Below, one piece after another: positions 1,743 to 57,352 of a DNA stretch of 64,000 nucleotides. The stretch is from positions 13,804-77,803 of the forward strand of contig CAWHIA010000018.1 in NCBI GenBank assembly GCA_963829155.1, given 5' to 3'. A program made the translations under genes and the position numbers. The notes beneath the pieces were generated by a model. It was not told the origin of the DNA. It searched no databases and saw only the letters and a program-made list of their open reading frames with translations. The DNA is from an uncultured Chloroflexia bacterium. GTDB taxonomy: Bacteria > Chloroflexota > Limnocylindria > Limnocylindrales > CSP1-4. Positions within the stretch are counted from its first letter, which is position 1. Every line of letters starts with the position of its first letter.

Positions 1743-1872
1743 GGCGGTCCTCCTGTTCCACGTGTCAGGATCGGCCACGGCGTCGGCCTCCGCAATGGGC
1801 TCGGACACGACCGCCCGGAAGTCTGCCCCAATGGGCACCGCTGCCGGAGGCGCCCTCGCTAGCATCGGCCGC

Positions 1873-3531
1873 ATGCGAACCCGCGCGGTGCCCGTCCCGG
1901 GGCACCAGGCCGCCGCCGGGCCTGCCGTCGCAGGCCCTCGCCCCGCGCCGGCCGCAGCCCCCGGGACCTCGTCCCTCTCGGCCACGTCGCCCCCCATCGA
2001 GTCCGCGGTCCTCGCCCCGGACGGGCTCGTCGACCTCCAGGCGACCGCCGGCAACCGCGCGACGGTCGAGGCGCTGCAGCGCTCGCCGGCCGCGGGCGCG
2101 GGGCCCGCCCGGCCCACGCCGATCATCGTGCAGCGCGCCGTGTCGGCGGAGCAGGCGACGACCATCGCCCGGCGGCTAGAGGACGCGATGAAGGGCTGGG
2201 GCACCGACGAGGAGGCGATCTACGGAGCGCTCGCCGGCCGGACGGCCGCGGACATGGATGAGATCCGCAAGGCCTACAAGTCCTCCTACAACAAGAACCT
2301 CGACGCGGAGCTGCGCGACGAGCTCAACGACTCGGAGCTGGCCCGGGTCAGCCAGTCGATGGCGCCGACCGCCGACGAATCCAAGCTCACCGAGGCCGAG
2401 CGACTGTCGGCGGCGACGGACCGCGCGAAGGCGGCCGCCGCGCACCTCAAGGAGGCGATGGCCGGCTGGGGGACGGAGGAGGACGAGATCTTCAACGTCC
2501 TCGAGGGTCGCGAGCCCGAGGAGATCCTCGCGATCCAGCGCGAGTACCTCGCTCTCACCGGCAACCACCTGGACCGGGACCTGCAGGACGAGCTGAGCGG
2601 CTCCGACCTGCGGAAGGCGCTCGCGCTGCTCCAGGTGCAGGCCGCGGGCACGTTCACGAACGAGATCGACCAGCACATGACCGAGGGCGAGACGACCACG
2701 GTCCAGGGCCGGTTCGAGTACGTCCTCCAGCAGCGCGAGCTGACGGTCCGCGTGCCGGTGGACTTCAAGCCGGACGCCGGCGTAACCGCGCCGATCGCGA
2801 CCTGGCAGTCGCAGATCGACACGGTCTGGAACCAGTTCGCGGCCGTGGAGAGCGGCGGCCTCAAGGTCCCGATCCGGTTCGGGATCGAGAACCGGGCGGG
2901 CGCCGACAAGTCGATCCGTGTGAAGGACAACAAGGTGCCGGGGACGCAGTCGGTCGAAGACCGGGCGAACGCGGGGATGTGGTTCCCGCTGATGGACGCC
3001 ACCACCGCGCCGCACGAGTTCGGGCACCTCGTCGGCCTCCAGGACGAGTACCAGCGCACGCACGGCGACTACAAGAAGATCACCGGCGAGGACAAGACAG
3101 GCCCCGCCAATGCCTCGGGCAAGACCGCCGCGGAGATCGCGGTCGACCTCCACGCGGCGCTCTACCTCGCCGACGCGACCCAGCGGGCCCCGACGGCCAC
3201 GACGCTGCTGACGACCGTCGGCCTGATCGTCGGCGGGGTCCCGCAGCAGGGCGACTTCGCGCAGGAGGTCCAGAAGGCGTACGACGACAAGTACTCGGGC
3301 TGGTTCAGCAAGTCGCTCGTCCAGGCGATGCGCGACAAGATCCCCGAGGGGAGCAAGTGGACGATCCAGTCGGTGTTCTCGTACGCCAGCCGGAGCATCA
3401 TGGGCAACCCGGAGATCCTGGGCGCCCCGGACCCGCACGACCACGCGGTCGAGCCACGCCACCTCGAGGAGTTCGTGCGCATCGTCCGTCGCGCCTACCC
3501 GGATCTCACCTGGACGGCCGGGTCGCGATGA
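1873..3531 (+). CDS. Putative CIS effector: N-terminal leader, two annexin-type repeats and a HEXXH zinc metallopeptidase domain
   Basis: The ATG at 1873 lies within ORF 1429..3531 and is divergent from the DUF4157 gene. The leader is LVDLQATAGNRATVEALQRS (2035-2067). Two annexin-like repeats span ~2155-2631: ARRLEDAMKGWGTDEEAIYGAL..IRKAYKSSYNKNLDAELRDEL and AAHLKEAMAGWGTEEDEIFNVL..IQREYLALTGNHLDRDLQDELSG. The C-terminal part carries APHEFGHLVGLQDEY, with HEFGH at 3013-3027. Confidence 0.8.
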   Translation: MRTRAVPVPGHQAAAGPAVAGPRPAPAAAPGTSSLSATSPPIESAVLAPDGLVDLQATAGNRATVEALQRSPAAGAGPARPTPIIVQRAVSAEQATTIARRLEDAMKGWGTDEEAIYGALAGRTAADMDEIRKAYKSSYNKNLDAELRDELNDSELARVSQSMAPTADESKLTEAERLSAATDRAKAAAAHLKEAMAGWGTEEDEIFNVLEGREPEEILAIQREYLALTGNHLDRDLQDELSGSDLRKALALLQVQAAGTFTNEIDQHMTEGETTTVQGRFEYVLQQRELTVRVPVDFKPDAGVTAPIATWQSQIDTVWNQFAAVESGGLKVPIRFGIENRAGADKSIRVKDNKVPGTQSVEDRANAGMWFPLMDATTAPHEFGHLVGLQDEYQRTHGDYKKITGEDKTGPANASGKTAAEIAVDLHAALYLADATQRAPTATTLLTTVGLIVGGVPQQGDFAQEVQKAYDDKYSGWFSKSLVQAMRDKIPEGSKWTIQSVFSYASRSIMGNPEILGAPDPHDHAVEPRHLEEFVRIVRRAYPDLTWTAGSR

Positions 3532-14827: not shown

Positions 14828-15229
14828 ATGGCACAGCCGCTCGTCATGGGCGACAAGATCCAGGGGCAGTGCGCGATCCACCAGATCCCGAACCCGGCGT
14901 CCGGTGCGCCGCAGCCCTCGCCGCCGATGCCGTTCTCGGCGCCGCTGCTGACCGGCCTCGAGCCGACCGTGACCATCGGCGGCAAGGCCGTCGCGGTGCT
15001 CGGGTCCTCGGGCTACAACACGCCGCCCCACGTGGGCCTGCATCCGACCGACCCGTTCATGGTCCCGACGACGCAGCAGGGCATGGTGATCAGCGGCAGC
15101 CCGACGGTCACGGCCGGCGGCAAGCCGATCGCGACGTCGAGCTCGCAGGTGGCGATGTGCGCCCAGGTGCCCGGCCAGCCGATGGCGACGGTCACGCGAC
15201 GTGACGGTCGCGTGAGGAGGCGGGCGTGA
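14828..15229 (+). CDS. PAAR-like spike-tip protein
   Basis: The 133 aa product reads MAQPLVMGDKIQGQC...TVTIGGKAVAVLGS...GMVISGSPTVTAGGKPIA. This PAAR-type pattern sits directly after the spike gene. Its stop overlaps the next start (GTGA). Confidence 0.8.
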   Translation: MAQPLVMGDKIQGQCAIHQIPNPASGAPQPSPPMPFSAPLLTGLEPTVTIGGKAVAVLGSSGYNTPPHVGLHPTDPFMVPTTQQGMVISGSPTVTAGGKPIATSSSQVAMCAQVPGQPMATVTRRDGRVRRRA

Positions 15230-15624
15230 GCGACGAGTTCATCGGCCGCGGCTGGGCGTTCCCGCTGCGCACCGACCCCACGGGCGGGATCGCGCTCGTC
15301 GCGCGCGAGCGCGAGATCGAGGAGGCGATCCGGCTGGTGCTCGGGACCTCGCCCGGCGAGCGCCCGATGCGGCCCGAGTTCGGCTGCCGGATCCACGACT
15401 ACGTGTTCGCGTCGGCCGACGGCGCGACGGCGTCGGCGATCGCGGCCGAGGTCCGCGAGGCGATCCGGCGCTGGGAGCCGCGGGTCGACGTCGAGGACGT
15501 CCAGGTCTCGTTCGACGCCCGTGACGCCGCCGTCATGTACATCGACATCAAGTACGCCATCCGGCGGACCAACGACCGCCGCAACCTCGTGTTCCCGTTC
15601 TACGTGATCCCGGGAGGAGACTGA
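15226..15624 (+). CDS. GPW/gp25-family baseplate wedge protein
   Basis: MSDEFIGRGWAFPLRTDPTGGIALV..EREIEEAIRLVLGTSPGERPMRPEFGCRIHDYVF is a textbook gp25 signature. An AGGAGG lies upstream of GTG 15226. Confidence 0.9.
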   Translation: MSDEFIGRGWAFPLRTDPTGGIALVAREREIEEAIRLVLGTSPGERPMRPEFGCRIHDYVFASADGATASAIAAEVREAIRRWEPRVDVEDVQVSFDARDAAVMYIDIKYAIRRTNDRRNLVFPFYVIPGGD

Positions 15625-15626
15625 TC

Positions 15627-17573
15627 ATGGCCCTGCCGGTCCCCAACCTCGACGACCGCCGCTTCCAGGACCTCGTGGACGACGCCAAGCGGCTCGTCCA
15701 GCAGCGCTGCCCGGAGTGGTCGGACCACAACGTCTCCGACCCGGGCGTGACGCTGATCGAGCTGTTCGCGTGGATGACCGACCAGGTCGTCTACCGCCTC
15801 AACCGCGTGCCGGACCGCAACTACGTCAAGTTCCTCGAGCTCATCGGGGTCAGCCTCTATCCGCCGACGGCCGCGCGCAGCCCGATGACGTTCTGGCTGT
15901 CGGCCCCGCAGCCGGACGTCGTCACGATCTCCGCCGCGACCCAGGTGGCCACGGTCCGCACCGACACCGACGAGGCGATCGCGTTCACGACGATCGAGGA
16001 CCTGCCGATCATCCCGTCCGAGCTGGCCGCCCTGGGCTCGATGATCGACGGCAAGACGCTGCGCGACCACATGGCCGCCCTCGAGAAGGGCACCGAGGTC
16101 TACTGCTTCCAGAAGGTGCCGTCCGCGGGCGACGCGCTGTACATCGGCCTGTCCGAGGCGGTCCCGTCGAACGCGGTCCGGCTGCGGTTCAAGGCCGACA
16201 TCGATGGCGTCGGCGTCGACCCGACCAACCCGCCGCTGGCCTGGGAGGCCTGGACCGGCGACGACTGGGAGCCGTGCGAGCTCGACTCCGACTCCACCGG
16301 CGGGCTCAACCGCGACGGCGACGTGGTGATCCACGTGCCGCACGGCCACGTGGTGTCGCTGATCGCGAAGCAGCGGGCCGGCTGGCTGCGGGCGCGGGTG
16401 ACGGATCTCGCCGAGGGCCAGCCCGCCTACTCGGCCTCGCCCAACATCAAGGGCCTCGAGGCGATCACGATCGGCGGCACCGTCGACGTGGTCAACGCCG
16501 AGCTCGTCACCGACGAGGAGATCGGGATCTCCGAGGGCGTCCCGGGGCAGCGGTTCCTGCTCAAGCGTGGGCCGGTGGTGCCCGGGGACGACGACCCCGT
16601 GCTCGAGGTGGCCGGCGACGAGGGCTGGGACGAGTGGACCTACGTGCCCGACTTCGCCGCCAGCGGCCCCGACGACAAGCACTTCACGATCGACCTGTCG
16701 ACGGGCGAGGTCCGGCTCGGGCCGGCGGTCCGCCTGGCCGACGGCGCGCTGCGACGCTACGGCGCGGTGCCCGTGAAGGGCGCCCATCTCCGGCTGGCCC
16801 AGTACCGGACCGGCGGCGGCCGCAAGGGCAACGTCTCGGCGCGCGCGATCAGCGTGCTCAAGTCGTCGATCCCGTTCGTGTCGCGCGTCGAGAACCGGCG
16901 TCCGGCCCGGGGCGGCGTCGACGGCGAGGACATCGAGAACGCCAAGATCCGGGGTCCGATCCGGCTGCGCGCCCGCGGCCGAGCGGTGACCACCGAGGAC
17001 TACGAGCAGCTCGCCCGCGAGGCCGCGCCCGAGGTCGCCCGCGTGCGGGCCGTGGCGGCCGGCGACGGCACCGACGCCGGGTCGGTCCGGGTCCTGATCG
17101 TGCCGTCGGCGGTGTCCGAGCTCGGGCGGCTGCGGTTCGACCAGCTCGTCCCCAACCCCGACACGCTCCAGAAGATCACCGACCGGCTCGAGGAGAGCCG
17201 GGTCATCGGCACCCGCGCGATCGTCGAGCCGCCCGTGTACCGCGGGATCACGGTGGTCGCGAAGCTCAAGGCGCGCTCGCGCATCAACCCGACCCGGCTC
17301 CAGGAGGAGGCGCTGCTCGCGCTGTACGAGTACTTCCACCCGATCACCGGCGGCCCCGACGGGACCGGCTGGCCGTTCGGCCGCCCGGTGAACGCGGGCG
17401 AGATCTACTCGGTCCTGCAGGGGATCCGCGGGACCGAGATGGTCGAGGACGCACGCCTGTTCGGGGCGGACCCGGTGACGGGCCAGCGCGGCCAGCAGAC
17501 CCAGCGCCTCGAGCTCGAGACCCACGCGCTCGTGTTCAGCTACGAGCACCAGGTCCTGGTCGAGGGCGCGTGA
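15627..17573 (+). CDS. Baseplate J-like protein (gp6/Afp11-like)
   Basis: The 648 aa product reads MALPVPNLDDRRFQDLVDDAKRLVQQRCPEWSDHNVSDPGVTLIELFAWMTDQVVYRLNRVPDRNY..., the conserved N-terminus of putative baseplate assembly proteins. Confidence 0.9.
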   Translation: MALPVPNLDDRRFQDLVDDAKRLVQQRCPEWSDHNVSDPGVTLIELFAWMTDQVVYRLNRVPDRNYVKFLELIGVSLYPPTAARSPMTFWLSAPQPDVVTISAATQVATVRTDTDEAIAFTTIEDLPIIPSELAALGSMIDGKTLRDHMAALEKGTEVYCFQKVPSAGDALYIGLSEAVPSNAVRLRFKADIDGVGVDPTNPPLAWEAWTGDDWEPCELDSDSTGGLNRDGDVVIHVPHGHVVSLIAKQRAGWLRARVTDLAEGQPAYSASPNIKGLEAITIGGTVDVVNAELVTDEEIGISEGVPGQRFLLKRGPVVPGDDDPVLEVAGDEGWDEWTYVPDFAASGPDDKHFTIDLSTGEVRLGPAVRLADGALRRYGAVPVKGAHLRLAQYRTGGGRKGNVSARAISVLKSSIPFVSRVENRRPARGGVDGEDIENAKIRGPIRLRARGRAVTTEDYEQLAREAAPEVARVRAVAAGDGTDAGSVRVLIVPSAVSELGRLRFDQLVPNPDTLQKITDRLEESRVIGTRAIVEPPVYRGITVVAKLKARSRINPTRLQEEALLALYEYFHPITGGPDGTGWPFGRPVNAGEIYSVLQGIRGTEMVEDARLFGADPVTGQRGQQTQRLELETHALVFSYEHQVLVEGA

Positions 17574-18124
17574 TGCGCGGCTACATCCCGGGGCTCGAGA
17601 CGCCCCACCCGCTCGGGCCGGCGCTCCCGGCCCTGTACCAGGACGACGACTTCGTCCAGCGGATGCTCGACGGGCTCGACGCGGTCGTGGCGCCGGTGTT
17701 CACCACGATCGACAACTTCGACTCGTACCTCGACCCCAGCCTCACGCCCGACGACTTCCTCGCCTGGCTCGCCGGCTGGGTGGGGATCGCGCTGGACGAG
17801 GGCTGGGACGAGGCCCGCCGCCGGGCGATCGTCGCGCGTGCCGTGGAGCTGTACCGGCTCCGGGGGACGGCGGCTGGGCTGGCCGGCCAGGTCGAGATCC
17901 AGACCGGCGGGACGGTCGAGATCGTCGAGAACGGGGCAACCGGGTGGTCCGTGGACCCGGGCGGCGAGCTGCCGGGGTCGGCCGACCCGCTCGTCGTCGT
18001 GCGGGTGACCGTGCCCGACCCGAAGGCGATCGACGCCCAGCAGCTGGACACGCTCGTCGCCACGGCCAAGCCGGCCCACGTGATGCACCGGATCGAGATC
18101 GTCAAGGGCGCCGCGAAGGCTTGA
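17573..18124 (+). CDS. Phage tail protein I-like baseplate protein (Afp12-like)
   Basis: The ATG at 17573 overlaps the upstream stop (TGATG). The protein reads MRGYIPGLETPHPLGPALPALYQDDDFVQRMLDGLD...LAWLAGWVGIALDEGWDEARRRAIVARAVELYRLRGT, which is P2 gpI-like. Confidence 0.85.
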   Translation: MRGYIPGLETPHPLGPALPALYQDDDFVQRMLDGLDAVVAPVFTTIDNFDSYLDPSLTPDDFLAWLAGWVGIALDEGWDEARRRAIVARAVELYRLRGTAAGLAGQVEIQTGGTVEIVENGATGWSVDPGGELPGSADPLVVVRVTVPDPKAIDAQQLDTLVATAKPAHVMHRIEIVKGAAKA

Positions 18125-18201
18125 CGTCTGTCCCGTCGCCGTCGCTTCCCCGCTCGTGTCGCTCCTGCCCGCGCGCCCTCGTCTGGCCTCCCGCACGCCC
18201 G

Positions 18202-18364
18202 CGTGCGTCGCACGCACGATTTCGCGTCATCGCGACGGCGTCCGTGCGTCGCACGCACCACCACGACATCGAATTCGACGGAATCCGGCCCGATTCGGAC
18301 CAAACCCGTGCGTGGCACGCACGGTCTCGTCCTTCGTGACCGGAATTGGTGCGTCGCACGCACG
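18202..18364. repeat. Composite intergenic element, copy A: four CGTGCG-N5-CGCACG palindromes spaced 41/64/41 nt
   Basis: The motifs lie at 18202-18218 (CGTGCGTCGCACGCACG), 18243-18259, 18307-18323 (CGTGCGTGGCACGCACG) and 18348-18364. A second copy with the same spacing lies at 35408-35569. Confidence 0.65.
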
Positions 18365-18484
18365 AATCGACCGGCCGGCCTACCCGATCGTCACCCTGCG
18401 ATTGAGGCCAACGGCGGCTCCCGCACGCCCGGCGACCCGTCTATCCTCTGCCCGACCCTCGCTGGACGGTGGAGAGTGGGCTGA

Positions 18485-21177
<2,693 letters not shown>

Positions 21178-27743: not shown

Positions 27744-30533
<2,790 letters not shown>

Positions 30534-30757
30534 CGGGACGAGCTCCTCGGAGTCGGGCGCCCACGCGTGGGCGGGCGCGGGTGGTGCATCGCTGAGGTGG
30601 CGATTGTACCCGCGTCCCCCGTCCGACCCGGGTTGCGGAACGGTGCCGGGAGAGGCCGATCGGCACCCATGGACCGTCCCTCCGGCCCCCGTCCGCGGGC
30701 CTGGACGCGCGGTACCATCCGCACGACGTCCGCCACGCCGGGAGAGCCCGTCCCTCG

Positions 30758-33576: not shown

Positions 33577-35259
33577 TCAACGCCCGGCGGTCCCGCCCGC
33601 GTACAGCCCGAGCAGGCGGGAGCGGAGCTGTCCCGAGGCGCCGACGAGATCGAGGAACGCCTCGCCCTCGAGCGCCAGGAGCAGACCGTCCGTCTCAGCG
33701 GTGACCGTCGCCGTGCGGGACGTGCGGTACAGCAGGCCGATCTCACCGAACACGGCGTCCGCTCCGAGCTTGCGCAGGACGACCGGCTCCGCACCGGTCC
33801 CGGCGGCCTGGGTGACCGTGAAGGCCCCCGACTCGATGATGTAGAACCGGTCTGCCGGATCGCCCTGGCGCACGATCACCTCGCCGGCGGTGACCGGGAT
33901 CTCGACCACCTGCTCCATCGCGGCCTCGAGGCGGGACGCGGAGACACCGGCGAACAGCGGCAGCTTGATCACCCGGCTGATCGTCGCCTCGTACGGCGTG
34001 ACTGGGCGGTCCGCCGCGGAGCCGATCATCACGAGGCCGACGCCCGTCAGGACGATCGTCGCGATGCCCGACACCCCGAGCGTCGCGAACGGGCCGTACG
34101 CGATGAGGAGCACGGGCATGAGAAACGCGCCGACGGCGCCGGTCAGCGTCGCGAGGGTCATCAGGACCCCGGTGCCGCGACCCCGCAGCCGATCCGGGAT
34201 GAGGCGCTGGAAGATCGTCGTCGTCGCGACGTCGACGATCAGCGCCCCGGCGGACGCGATGCCGATCGTCAGCAAGGCGAAGGGGAGGTTGGTCGCCAGT
34301 CCCAGCGCAATCGTTCCGCCACCGGCGACGATGGCCCCAACGATCAACGGCATGCCCATGCCGCGCCGCAGCACGAGGGCCCCGGCGGCGATCGCGCCGA
34401 TCAGACCGCCGATGCCGATGGCCGCGTTGAGGTAACCGTTGGCCTGGTCGCCGGCGTTGAGCACGTCGATCGCGAGGATGACCGTGATCACCTGGAACCC
34501 GCCCCCGAGGAAGCCCGCCATCAGCTGGACGACGACGAGCCCGCCGAGGGGTCGAAGGCGCAGCGGGGTCTCCGGCGGTGCAGGGGTGCTGCCCTCGACG
34601 GCGGGCGCTGTGGCATCGGCGGGTGGCGATCCCTCCGGAGGCGGGGCCGCCTCGGCTCGATCTCGGGCCCGGGAGCTTGGGAGGGACCACAGGACGACGG
34701 CGATGAACGCGAAGGTCAGGGCGTTCACGATGAACGCGGTCGTCACGGTGCCGAAGGCGAGGACGAGCCCGCCGATCGCCGGACCAAGGATGTAGCTCAC
34801 GTTCTGGAGGCTCGCCCAGGCGCTGTTTGCGGGCCCGAGCTGCTGCTCGTCCTTTGCCAGGGCCGGCAGGTAGGCACCCATCGCCGGGTAGAAGAACGCC
34901 GAGCCGCAGGCGGCGAGGATTGCGAGGGCAGCGAGGATCAAGGTCGATCCGCCCGTCGCAACGACGACGGCCATAACGACCATGAGCCCGCCGCGATAGA
35001 GGTCCGAGACGAGCAGCACGATGCGGCGGTCGAACCGATCCGCGACGATCCCGGCCGGCACGGACAACAGCACGTACGGCAGCAAGCGGACCGCGCCGAA
35101 CGCGCCGACGAGGGCGGCGCTCCCCAATTCGCTGTAGATCACGACGAAGATCGCGACGATGTACAGCCAGTCGCCGATTCCGCTGACGAACTCGCCGAGC
35201 AGGAGTCGGACGAGCGGGCGGTTGCCTAGCAGGTCCCGGTAGACGCGCAGGCCAGCCAA
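33577..35259 (-). CDS. MFS transporter fused to a C-terminal cyclic-nucleotide-binding domain
   Basis: A GGAGG RBS precedes TTG 35259. The 560 aa product has an MFS core with about 12 TM segments (...LLGEFVSGIGDWLYIVAIFVV...PAGIVADRFDRR...). The C-terminal cNMP domain reads LPLFAGVS...VIVRQGDPADRFYIIESGAF...LGADAVFGEIGLLYRTSRTATV. Confidence 0.85.
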   Translation of the reverse strand: MAGLRVYRDLLGNRPLVRLLLGEFVSGIGDWLYIVAIFVVIYSELGSAALVGAFGAVRLLPYVLLSVPAGIVADRFDRRIVLLVSDLYRGGLMVVMAVVVATGGSTLILAALAILAACGSAFFYPAMGAYLPALAKDEQQLGPANSAWASLQNVSYILGPAIGGLVLAFGTVTTAFIVNALTFAFIAVVLWSLPSSRARDRAEAAPPPEGSPPADATAPAVEGSTPAPPETPLRLRPLGGLVVVQLMAGFLGGGFQVITVILAIDVLNAGDQANGYLNAAIGIGGLIGAIAAGALVLRRGMGMPLIVGAIVAGGGTIALGLATNLPFALLTIGIASAGALIVDVATTTIFQRLIPDRLRGRGTGVLMTLATLTGAVGAFLMPVLLIAYGPFATLGVSGIATIVLTGVGLVMIGSAADRPVTPYEATISRVIKLPLFAGVSASRLEAAMEQVVEIPVTAGEVIVRQGDPADRFYIIESGAFTVTQAAGTGAEPVVLRKLGADAVFGEIGLLYRTSRTATVTAETDGLLLALEGEAFLDLVGASGQLRSRLLGLYAGGTAGR

Positions 35260-35407: not shown

Positions 35408-35569
35408 GATGCGTCGCACGCACGAATCCCTGTCGGGATGGCTGCGATCGTGCGTCCCGCGCACGGCGCCGACGCGAATCGGGCGTCATCCGCGTGAAAT
35501 CGCGTCGATCCCGTGCGTGCCGCGCACGATCCGGTCGATTTGGACACGAATTGATGCGTGGCACGCACG
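35408..35569. repeat. Composite intergenic element, copy B: four (C/G)(G/A)TGCG-N5-CGCACG palindromes spaced 41/63/41 nt
   Basis: The motifs lie at 35408-35424, 35449-35465 (CGTGCGTCCCGCGCACG), 35512-35528 (CGTGCGTGCCGCGCACG) and 35553-35569. The architecture matches copy A at 18202-18364. Confidence 0.65.
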
Positions 35570-35595: not shown

Positions 35596-36535
35596 TCAGC
35601 CTGACGCGTCGACCATCAACGGCCGCATGAACGCCGCGGCTTCGCGGACGCCCTCGTCGGCGGGTTGCCACTCGTCCTCGTTCTCGATGGACAGGACGTC
35701 GTCATAGCCGACCTCGCGGAGCGCGCTGACGAAGGCGGCCCAGAACGCCGGCCCATGGCCACGCCCGACCGTCCGAAACCCCCAGGCGCGCCCGGCGGGG
35801 TCCTCGAATGGATGCTGATCGAGCACGCCGGCGATCGCCACGATGTCCGGGACCAGCTCGGTGTCCTTGAGATGGACGTGATGCACCGCGGGTCCCAGCG
35901 CCCGGACGACGGCGATCGGATCCATCTGCTGCCAGAACATGTGCGATGGATCCACGTTCGCGCCGATGATCGGACCGATCGCCGACCGCATCCGCTCCAG
36001 CGTCGGGACGTTGTAGACGAGGAACAGCGGATGCAGCTCGAAGGCGATCCGCCGGACTCCGTGCTCGTCGGCGAAGCGGGCCATCTCGCGCCAGAACGGG
36101 ATCGCCGTGTCCCACTGTCGCTCGAGGAGCGCGACGGCGTCCGGGGGCCACGGATACCAGATCCAGTTGACGGTCGTCGCGCCGGGTCCGTCGCCCGGAC
36201 AGCCGGACATGGTGACGATCTTGTCGACGCTCGAGCAGCTCGGCCAGCCGGATCGTGTCCTCGATGCTCCGGCGCTGCTGCTCGCCGATCACCGGGTGGA
36301 GCGGGAACCCTGAGCAGTTGAGCGCGGCGATGCGCAGGCCGCGGCTCGCGAACGCGTCACGGAACCGCGACCGTGCCGCCGGATCCGTGAGCAGCGTCGC
36401 CGTATCGGCGTGGGTCATCTCGGACGTCCCGCCGACGGCGATCTCGATGGCGGTCGCGCCGATGTCCACGGCCAGATCCAGGGCGGCCTCGAACGACGAC
36501 TCGGGCACGGAGTCGGTGAACAGACCAAGGTCCAT
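35596..36535 (-). pseudogene. Sugar phosphate isomerase/epimerase (xylose-isomerase-like TIM barrel), one frame break
   Basis: The N-terminal part lies in ORF 35702..36535: MDLGLFTDSVP...GATAIEIAVGG...LRIAALNCSGFPLHP....IRLAELLE. The rest lies in the frame of ORF 35596..36210: VDKIVTMSGCPGDG...IAFELHP..LVYN...HVHLKD... One extra base lies near 36228-36231. Confidence 0.8.
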
Positions 36536-55503: not shown

Positions 55504-57086
55504 TTACGGGCCGTTGACGAGACCGCTGGTGTCGACCACCTCGAGGTTGGAGCCCTTGAACCGGTCCAGCTCGTGCAGGACGTCATCGTCGAAGCGCGGG
55601 TCGCTGGCGCCCGAGACGTACCACGGCGAGCCGTTGTCGGCGAGGATCATCCCGTAGCGCTGGAGCGCGACCGCGATCACCTTCGCGTCGTGCGACAGGC
55701 CGGTCAGGTCCGCGTTCGCCTTCAGCCGGACGCGAAGGCCCATCGGCGGCAGCGACGCGCTGTGCGAGGACGACGCCTCGTGGCGCGCCGGGTAGATGTA
55801 GGTGTCACGGGTCTCGGGGGCGGTGAACCGGAGGGCGTGGGTGATCTCGCCCGCGGCCACCTCGTCCCAACGGACGAGGCCTGGCAGGATCGGCAGGCCG
55901 GCGGCGTCGGCCGACGTCCAGCCGTCGGGGCGGAGGTCGTTCGACGACAGGTCCCAGATCGCGCCCGAGCCCGCGTGCCAGGTGCCGCTCGCTGACTGGC
56001 GGGCGGCGAACAGCTCGTACAGCTTGCAGCCGACCCGGTCGACCATGAGCAGGTGGCCGTCGGAGCCGTCCTCGATCATGCGGCGCGACGGGGATCGGGT
56101 ACGGGCCGGCATCGGACTCGTCGTCGTAGTCGAAGATCACCGTCCGCAGCGTCGTCGTCGCGTCGACCACCTGGTACGGGATCCCGTAGCCCGCGTACGA
56201 GCCGAAGTCCATGTGGAACGACCGGCCCGAGCCGATGGTCGAGATCATCGTGCGCGCTGTTGGTCGCGACGTCGAGGCCGTCGACGCGCGCGTTCCAGAC
56301 GTTGTCGGCCGGGAACACCGTGCAGCCGGGCGCGCCCTGGATCACCGGCGCGTCGACCACGTCCACGTGCTCGTCGCCGTCGGGCGTGCCGTCGTCGTCC
56401 GAGTCGGCGTCCTTCGGGTCGAGGTCGCGGACGACCTCCGCCAGCGTCATCAGGCCGTCGGCGTCGGGATCCTCCTCACCGTCGGGCTTGCCGTCGCCGT
56501 CGGTGTCCTTGAGGCCGGGGTTCGTGCCGACCTGCTGCTCGATCCGGTTCGCCAGCCCGTCGTCGCGCGTCCCCTCGATGCCGTCGCGGCGCCCGTCGCC
56601 GTCGGTGTCGGCGTCGCGCGGGGCGGTGCCGGCGCGGAACTCGATGATGTTCCACAGGCCGTCGCCGTCGGGATCCTCGCGGTCGTCGCGCGTCCCGTCG
56701 CCGTCGGAGTCGGCCTTGCGCGGGTAGGTGCGGGCCGCCTGCTCGCGGGCATTGGAGAGGCCGTCGCCGTCGGGATCCTCGGCGCCATCCTTCGTGCCGT
56801 CGCCGTCGGTGTCCTTCTTGCGGGGGTTCGTGCCCGCGAGGTACTCGTAGCGGTTCCACAGGCCGTCGCCGTCGGGATCCTCGTAGGTGTCGCGGGTCCC
56901 GTCGTGGTCGGTGTCCTTGCGATGGGGGTTCGTGTGCGTCTGCTGGCGCTCGAACTTGTTGGGCAGCCCGTCGCCGTCGGAATCGGTGGTGGCGGACGAG
57001 GCCCCGGGCACGCCGAGCGCGCCGACCAGGAGCAGCCCGGCGATGGCCGCGCCGAGCGCCCTCCTTCGATTCCCCGTCATCGTCAA
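55504..57086 (-). pseudogene. Secreted protein with thrombospondin type-3 (DxDxDG calcium-binding) repeats and a conserved C-terminal domain, two +1 frame breaks
   Basis: The signal peptide is MTMTGNRRRALGAAIAGLLLVGALGVPGASS. At least 7 DTDGDG/DPDGDG repeats follow. The C-terminal domain is spread over three frames. These read ...CTVFPADNVWNARVDGLDVATNS, then ARTMISTIGSGRSFHMDFGSYAGYGIPYQVV...DAGPYPIP, then RRMIEDGSDGHLLMVDRVGCKLYELF...GWTSADAAGLPILPGLVRWDEV. The breaks lie near 56252-56262 and 56085-56092. Confidence 0.75.
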
Positions 57087-57352
57087 TGTCGCCCCTCAGC
57101 GATGGGTGGACGCGGCCGCCTCACACGGTCGTCATGCGGACCGTGCTCAACGACCGCGCCCCTGCCGGCATCCTCATCGACCCTCGTCGCGGTCGAGATG
57201 ACCCGGAGGTCCCGGTCGGTGACGACGGGCACCAGAACCCGTGAACGGCCAGGATCAGCCGCCGCTGAACACCGCGAACAGGCGCGAGCCGGCGATCGCG
57301 CCGATCGCCGCCGCCACGACGACCAGCCACGGAACGAGGCGTCGCGAGATCG

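Follow-up and report, generated by a model that had tools for sequence, protein, structure and literature searches.

The 64,000-nt stretch of DNA analysed here (the window), from an uncultured Chloroflexota bacterium, contains in two of its non-coding gaps, where codon-position GC is flat, a composite element made of four 17-nt palindromes at fixed distances, in the following referred to as the four-unit module. Copy A (18202–18364; 163 bp, dyad-symmetric) is found on the 3′ side of the gene for a Tail_P2_I baseplate protein (17573–18124, plus strand), which is the last of a contractile-injection-system operon with a Baseplate_J gene upstream of it, and on the 5′ side of the gene for a zinc-ribbon protein with a long Glu-Pro-rich repeat (18485–20440, plus strand); the stop codon of the former lies 78 nt before the module and the start codon of the latter 120 nt after it. 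Copy B (35408–35569; 162 bp) separates two minus-strand genes, namely, in the direction of transcription, that for an AP_endonuc_2/xylose-isomerase-like TIM-barrel protein (35596–36210), with its stop codon 27 nt from the module, and that for an MFS transporter fused to a cNMP-binding domain (33577–35259), with its start codon ~149 nt from the module. A previous inspection of the letters alone (the sequence-only reading) correctly placed both copies upstream of genes on opposite strands; in addition, each is just 3′ of a gene that is co-directional with the one that follows. The two stretches are copies of a real, previously undescribed family of intergenic elements of uncultured soil Chloroflexota, which is the subject of the following analysis.

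The units of copy A start 41, 64 and 41 nt apart and are, in order, the outer unit 1 (CGTGCGTCGCACGCACG, 18202–18218), the inner units 2 (CGTGCGTCGCACGCACC, 18243–18259) and 3 (CGTGCGTGGCACGCACG, 18307–18323), and the outer unit 4 (GGTGCGTCGCACGCACG, 18348–18364). In copy B the start-to-start spacing is 41, 63 and 41 nt, with unit 1 (GATGCGTCGCACGCACG, 35408–35424) and unit 4 (GATGCGTGGCACGCACG, 35553–35569) as the outer pair and unit 2 (CGTGCGTCCCGCGCACG, 35449–35465) and unit 3 (CGTGCGTGCCGCGCACG, 35512–35528) as the inner one; no strand is assigned to the modules or to their units. All eight 17-mers match CGTGCG-N5-CGCACG with at most one mismatch each, or two for the outer units of copy B, and the four-palindrome element in two copies, as initially described, was found at every one of its positions and spacings. 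The pattern TGCGTNNCNCGCAC has nine matches in the window, all of them module units (eight units, one of which is counted on both strands), against 0.07 ± 0.26 expected from dinucleotide shuffles. When scored for the four-unit architecture, copy A reaches 46/48 and copy B 44/48, the best of 100 random windows being 35, and the same scan reveals no third copy, either intact or degenerate, in the 64 kb. The DNA flanking copy A and that flanking copy B are unrelated to each other, so that the two are not part of a larger segmental duplication.

A scan of 185,579 species-representative genomes, among which the window's own genome is absent, with a query of two units 38–44 nt apart, returned 72 loci (here numbered with the prefix L), 22 of which carry the four-unit module at 41/63/41 spacing; variants, with 62–65 nt in the centre or 40 or 42 nt at the sides, are rare. 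All 22 modules come from Chloroflexota metagenome-assembled genomes (MAGs) of 70–75% GC, the carriers being RBG_16_72_14 (seven contigs), several ‘uncultured Chloroflexia’ MFD bins and MAG145. A second scan, of Joint Genome Institute (JGI) metagenome contigs with a three-unit pattern, gave 11 four-unit modules on short contigs of ~69–75% GC, three of which duplicate modules of the genome scan. After removal of identical rows, there are 29 distinct module sequences, spaced 41/63(±2)/41, all from Chloroflexota MAGs or soil metagenome contigs; viral contigs scanned for the module gave no match. The element is dispersed, multi-copy and strand-symmetric, in agreement with the dispersed repeat that was one of the possibilities of the sequence-only reading. 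The two trivial origins that had been considered at that stage, namely chance occurrence without fixed spacing and a larger duplicated segment, are ruled out by the nine matches against 0.07 expected, by the unrelated flanks and by the 27 further distinct copies found elsewhere.

The number of copies per genome was approached by a rough capture–recapture estimate based on MAG loci, not on whole genomes: with seven strict-pattern matches in one MAG, recovery by the strict first pattern of one out of six modules independently found by the second pattern, and no extra copy in ~170 kb of flanking loci, perhaps tens of copies would be present per genome. A full-text literature search found no description of a four-unit Chloroflexota module. 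Surveys of repetitive extragenic palindromic (REP) elements list GTAG-type REPs in Chloroflexi (Thermomicrobium) and nothing that resembles it (PMC3733652, PMC12306157).

The consensus of the unit, C-G-T-G-C-G-[T/c]-S-S-S-[A/g]-C-G-C-A-C-G, consists of 7-nt arms around 3 nt. Across 96 units, arm positions 3–6 and 12–15 are near-invariant, and the central triplet is 97% G/C, with G or C either way. Thus, the arms are indeed conserved, as reported initially; their 6-nt length and the 5-nt ‘free’ centre are better replaced by 7-nt arms and a 3-nt centre of restricted composition. Such a centre, nearly all G/C yet free as to which of the two, fits indirect read-out better than a loop. The outer units carry GAWTC on their inner side, and the inner units, which are preceded by G[A/G]TC, are set within GTC-N5-[unit]-N5-GAC, making a palindrome of 17 bp, or of 33 bp including the GTC/GAC flanks, which is always found in non-coding gaps. 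The entire 162 bp is dyad-symmetric, units 1 and 2 having one polarity and units 3 and 4 the opposite one, as seen in a preference for C at position 10. In the module alignment, no conservation is seen outside units 1 and 4.

The spacers, of 24, 46 and 24 nt, are unconserved in sequence apart from positioned motifs. Their earlier description as only loosely similar misses these GAWTC and GTC/GAC motifs and a periodicity in composition: in the unconserved columns of the spacers, A/T content rises and falls every 10.25 bp (power of 0.715, versus 0.11 in permutations), a value reached in none of 500 permutations for all spacers and in none of 2000 for the central spacer alone. The A/T peaks fall in phase with the dyad as well as with the centre of each of the four units, and the periodicity is absent in the 80 nt outside the element. 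Exact GAWTC motifs, which read identically on either strand, occupy phased slots at positions 17, ~68, ~79, ~89 and 140, counted from the start of unit 1; in copy A, the central stretch 18281–18296 contains GAATC (18281–18285) and GATTC (18292–18296) in such slots, and in copy B GAATC directly follows unit 1 (35424–35428). The GAWTC beside unit 1 and that beside unit 4 show no covariation of the kind that a helix would need, so that pairing of the two end motifs is ruled out. The spacings themselves fit the DNA helix, 41 bp corresponding to 4.0 turns and 63 bp to 6.1 turns at 10.3 bp per turn, and all unit centres share one phase at ~10.3–10.4 bp per turn; 41/63/41 bp are thus 4, 6 and 4 turns, which puts the four sites on one face of the helix. 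As a side observation, GANTC, which is recognized by CcrM/HinfI-type methyltransferases, includes the phased motif GAWTC.

BLAST comparisons among loci reveal that the same intergenic site is occupied in related species in the groups {L006, L007, L026, L067}, {L015, L022}, {L020, L035}, {copy A, L039} and {L034, L085}. In the four-species group, whose flanking genes are 74–84% identical, the module spacers are only 33–47% identical, to be compared with 43 ± 7% between non-orthologous copies, whereas the arms are 85–96% identical and all four species have spacers of exactly 24/46/24 nt. Spacer sequences that are saturated while arms and spacer lengths are kept indicate purifying selection, in place, on the arms and on their spacing. 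Copies within one genome have only the motifs in common, with spacers at random-level identity, which indicates that there has been no recent amplification. Two contigs of the MAG MFD02840.bin.2.71, L046 (1785–8000) and L051 (1–6233), are 96% identical over 6.2 kb that include a module, and are probably a strain-variant or assembly duplicate within the bin.

Placement with respect to genes was examined at 17 independent sites, with gene calls in the MAG loci based on GC at third codon positions and a Pfam check on ten flanking proteins at five sites. Approximately ten sites are between co-directional genes, three to four between convergent genes and one between divergent genes, and the module begins 4–162 nt past the upstream stop codon. 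Pfam confirmed two convergent pairs (amidohydrolase versus DHO_dh at L020, and a cadherin-like gene versus a UvrD-like helicase at L034) and a conserved site between adjacent co-directional 7TM-HD and ybeY genes. The neighbours are functionally unrelated (e.g. contractile-injection-system baseplate, MFS, YbeY, UvrD-like helicase, extracytoplasmic function (ECF) sigma factor, amidohydrolase), and an all-against-all comparison of the genes directly flanking modules found no recurrent protein family. At L060, a long minus-strand open reading frame (ORF; 1840–3186), coding-like in its codon bias, reaches and covers the module (3022–3183), which may overlap a gene start at this locus; the stop codon of the next gene is only 4 nt from the module.

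On the whole, as far as can be judged from sequence, the data speak in favour of a dimeric protein that would read the palindromes as double-stranded DNA, their helical phasing being fixed. The best explanation, which in our estimate has about an even chance of being right, is that the module is a host-maintained docking site at which four dimers of one sequence-specific protein would sit on one face of a bent or wrapped double-stranded DNA. The four 17-bp palindromes are the predicted recognition sites for one sequence-specific dimeric protein; being 41, 63 and 41 bp apart (4, 6 and 4 turns at ~10.3–10.4 bp per turn), they would hold all dimers on the same helix face; and the DNA between the sites, free in sequence and fixed in length, would bear in its in-phase A/T every 10.25 bp the signature of bending or wrapping toward a protein core. 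The product would be a defined two-fold-symmetric nucleoprotein particle over ~160 bp, with a likely structural role as a boundary, insulator or topological site between transcription units. Indeed, the intergenic placement, mostly just past gene ends, makes a structural role the most likely one, rather than that of a promoter operator. What the sequences themselves show is the existence of the family, its architecture, how it is conserved, the absence of pairing covariation and the helical phasing; protein binding, the dimeric state and oligomerization of the protein, the wrapping of the DNA and the biological role are what we infer from this pattern. Some bacterial interspersed mosaic elements (BIMEs) of E. 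coli bind gyrase and IHF; a function at the DNA level by way of these proteins is documented, and a boundary, insulator or topological role has been proposed for them. A bolder version, which is rather unlikely as it stands, sees in the module an encoded positioning sequence for a bacterial chromatin-like particle, with four dimers wrapping ~160 bp and marking, at defined intergenic points, the boundaries of transcription units or supercoil domains in this soil lineage. If true, a ‘nucleosome-positioning’ logic would be written in the DNA as A/T in phase, linkers of fixed length and four palindromes serving as anchors, a logic of which we know of no description in bacteria.

An alternative to the docking site, and an unlikely one in our judgement, is a transcribed REP/BIME-like element acting as RNA: located between cistrons or in 3′ untranslated regions (UTRs), its four very stable GC hairpins would stop 3′ exonucleases, cause termination or attenuation of read-through, or be bound by an RNase or an RNA-binding protein, with the result that neighbouring expression is uncoupled. 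The dyad symmetry would let it act from either transcribed strand, its folds are more stable than shuffles, and the placement is typical of REPs, with most copies 4–160 nt past a stop and gaps of the three kinds in numbers that match those elements (PMC3733652), including the site conserved between 7TM-HD and ybeY. Furthermore, each unit is able to form a 7-bp hairpin, and in 93% of the stem cells (28 stem pairs × 29 sequences, i.e. 812 cells) the bases can pair. However, compensatory changes are lacking, and double changes are below chance: both sides are changed in one of the 812 cells versus 7.3 ± 1.9 in column shuffles, all 500 of which gave higher values. At pair 7/11, the counts are 53 T-A, 26 T-G, 17 C-A and no C-G, so that one half-site may weaken and never both, the opposite of selection for pairing and what would be expected if a dimer required a single good half-site. 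When the units are read as transcribed, C-A mismatches (14) are no rarer than U-G wobbles (9), and the RNAalifold covariation term is −0.19 kcal/mol. Exact linker lengths, in-phase A/T every 10.25 nt and a non-covarying GAWTC present on both strands have no RNA rationale; helical phasing in DNA that is random in other respects belongs to B-form DNA that bends toward a protein surface, not to RNA. No terminator consensus or U-tract terminator was found at copies A and B, and no match to Rfam at gathering score across the window, with only noise at E<10 for copy A, by which a known RNA family is ruled out. The four-hairpin RNA, one of the two possibilities raised by the sequence-only reading, is therefore not what the pattern of change points to. 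The other, i.e. an array of sites for a dimeric DNA-binding protein, agrees with it as far as recognition of the palindromes is concerned, given the avoidance of double changes and the in-phase A/T, and fails in the local operator role then attached to it. A local or global regulator controlling the gene downstream of each copy, the leading idea at that stage, is by now a very improbable explanation. The 17-mers are palindromic, of typical operator size and helically phased, both window copies are 120–150 nt upstream of a start codon, and one related copy has divergent neighbours, among them a gene for an ArsR-type regulator; what is missing is promoter placement near related genes. At least three independent copies are between convergent genes, with no promoter to control, the downstream genes have no functional coherence, and no sigma-70-type promoter consensus was found in or beside copies A and B. 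Moreover, a 70-nt stretch just 5′ of the zinc-ribbon gene (18415–18484), which carries GTCTATCCT and a GGAGAG ribosome-binding site, is nearly identical in the ortholog L039, unlike the remainder of that intergenic region, which is diverged; judging from these features, it is probably the promoter or 5′UTR of that gene, and being downstream of the module it makes it probable that the promoter does not overlap the sites. Occurrence at co-directional, convergent and rarely divergent sites beside unrelated genes is thus not that of a local operator array, including one for the regulators initially proposed (STAND/SARP, IclR, TetR), and a regulon is ruled out by the absence of a recurrent flanking family, by the unrelated Pfam functions and by the true convergent contexts.

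That the module is instead a non-autonomous mobile element, comparable to REPINs (REP doublets forming hairpins) or miniature inverted-repeat transposable elements (MITEs), copied to new intergenic sites by a once-per-genome RAYT-type HUH or other transposase that recognizes the palindromes as single-stranded DNA hairpins or as end binding sites, appears improbable to a considerable degree. Such an origin would account for a multi-copy element confined to one lineage, with two sites per half and inverted halves like transposon ends, and with a core, GTGCGT-N3-ACGCAC, also found in GTAG-tagged REP doublets of other phyla and of a Chloroflexaceae MAG. Presence also differs between related genomes, L068 having a copy where L046 and L051 have none and the reverse being found at a neighbouring gap, and one synteny break (L058 versus the window) coincides with an element, although neither comparison offers clean boundaries. 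Against mobility stand the absence of recent amplification within genomes and the orthologous copies kept in place under selection, along with a copy number estimated at tens rather than hundreds and the lack of matches in viral contigs. Direct repeats in the flanks stay within the control level at every offset for lengths of 2 to 8, so that, with no target-site duplication and with copies dissimilar outside the motifs, the module does not resemble a MITE. Neither GTAG nor CGTC is present at the palindrome ends, the outside flanks being C/G. Spacer 1 matches the reverse complement of its own spacer 3 no better than that of other elements, and likewise for the two halves of the centre, which rules out a long REPIN-like hairpin; a whole-doublet hairpin and related spacers within a genome, as in REPIN–RAYT systems, are thus both lacking. 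Finally, none of the 1–9 kb loci around matches contains two modules, and no transposase-like family recurs among the directly flanking genes by all-against-all blastp, the other ORFs of the loci not having been profile-scanned for transposases.

The docking of four dimers on double-stranded DNA has in turn to be confronted with several observations that weigh against it. Placement after stop codons, between co-directional or convergent genes, equals that of transcribed REP elements (PMC3733652). If 7TM-HD and ybeY are co-transcribed, a stable protein–DNA particle between them would obstruct transcription unless binding is regulated. Each unit is predicted to form a very stable hairpin in RNA or in single-stranded DNA, the folds of the two window copies are modestly more stable than shuffles (z = −2.4 and −3.0), and the invariant arms could also be due to a base-reading protein that binds RNA or hairpins. 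The A/T periodicity consists of column averages of 29 sequences and is partly carried by the GAWTC motif. No candidate binder gene recurs beside the elements among the direct flanks. Three metatranscriptome runs gave contigs in neighbouring genes or in low-complexity repeats and none over the element.

Among known systems, the closest in kind, with respect to composition and placement, is the REP/BIME class. REP elements are found mainly past gene ends, between co-directional and convergent genes (PMC3733652, PMC2817692), and are defined by a GTAG or CGTC tetranucleotide at one end of the palindrome (PMC3733652). The module shares with them short GC-rich palindromes (20–40 bp in REPs), regular spacing, alternating orientation and the organization of a composite intergenic element, as well as a position mostly downstream of ORFs, between unidirectional or convergent genes. 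It differs from them in that it has neither the GTAG/CGTC tag nor compensatory stem variants; it would be present in roughly tens of copies, according to the estimate given above, as opposed to hundreds (typically >100 per genome); it has one fixed four-unit form instead of a variable array; its linkers are free in sequence, exact in length and A/T-phased at 10.25 bp; and it is kept at orthologous sites across species. The family belongs to the class of dispersed intergenic palindromes, within which it is set apart by a rigid, helically phased four-site layout that is selected at orthologous sites.

The loci returned by the genome scan also include a GTAG-tagged REP family, GTAGG-GTGCGTnnnACGCAC-C, often in inverted doublets 38–44 nt apart (L010, L016, L017, L021, L023, L025, L030, L040–L042, L045, L049, L052, L053, L059, L062, L064 and others), which is common to Planctomycetota, Thiomargarita, Thiotrichaceae, Alysiella, Moraxella, Ectothiorhodospiraceae and a Chloroflexaceae MAG. 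Its hairpin core is identical to that of the module, an identity that may partly reflect the search pattern. The GTAG-tagged units, however, have GTAGG...CCTAC heads and form inverted doublets, whereas the Chloroflexota module has no GTAG, each of its halves consists of two units of like orientation, GAWTC being placed inward, and REPIN-type complementarity is lacking. Yet another repeat on the same core, GTTC-GTGCGTCCCACGCAC-AG, is seen as direct tandem arrays with periods of ~40–72 nt in L003, L044, L055 and L069, all from Limnocylindria MAGs. The hairpin core may be recognized by a factor shared across Chloroflexota.

More distant comparisons can be made with other composite or palindromic elements. 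The enterobacterial repetitive intergenic consensus (ERIC) or intergenic repeat unit (IRU) sequences of Enterobacteriaceae are 127-bp imperfect palindromes, conserved over their whole length and thought to act as RNA. Like the module they exceed 100 bp, are dyad-symmetric and intergenic, have a low to moderate copy number and are conserved across species; in the module, on the other hand, conservation is limited to the four 17-mers and a few phased positions. Octamers of the Lrp/AsnC type wrap DNA over several palindromic boxes, and resolvase res sites are comparable phased assemblies, so that dimer-sized palindromes integral turns apart, A/T-rich phased linkers and a footprint of ~100–160 bp are features in common; those assemblies belong to particular promoters or recombination sites, mostly with one for each type of locus, whereas the module is dispersed over many unrelated intergenic sites, also at convergent gene ends. 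The sites matS/MatP, SBS/SlmA, NBS/Noc and ram/RacA are GC-containing palindromes of 12–16 bp, tens per chromosome, bound by a dimeric protein with a structural role; they are, however, single sites, often intragenic and in one chromosomal region, instead of strictly spaced intergenic quartets.

As for the organism, the window is 84% identical in nucleotide sequence to L039 (MAG MFD05513.bin.2.203) over 15221–19391 and 83.5% identical to L058 (RBG_16_72_14) over 27777–30637, and its sequence was found only in soil and rhizosphere metagenomes. This identity of 83–84% to Chloroflexota MAG contigs assigns it to an uncultured soil/rhizosphere Chloroflexota lineage, and not to the actinomycete (Streptomyces) setting that the wording of the sequence-only reading implied; accordingly, the contractile-injection-system locus and the SARP-like regulator are both to be attributed to soil Chloroflexota rather than to an actinomycete. 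Two repeats within genes of the window may also be mentioned. In the zinc-ribbon gene, a very long imperfect tandem repeat of GAGCCC-type units (18630–19700) encodes the Glu-Pro-rich low-complexity region and draws unrelated metatranscriptome contigs. In a minus-strand gene at ~56076–57095, a 102-nt (34-codon) unit is repeated in tandem some six or seven times at 56370–56990.

REP, BIME and ERIC elements have been known for ~40 years, and their function is debated among selfish DNA, RNA stabilizer and protein-binding site. In this context, the comparative signal of the Chloroflexota family is unusually clean: selection keeps the anchors and their spacing, and the randomized DNA between them is still helically A/T-phased, a combination that argues for a role as double-stranded nucleoprotein and not for hairpin pairing. 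The family is thus a tractable case for finding the partner protein and the role of what would be a phased four-dimer particle at gene ends.

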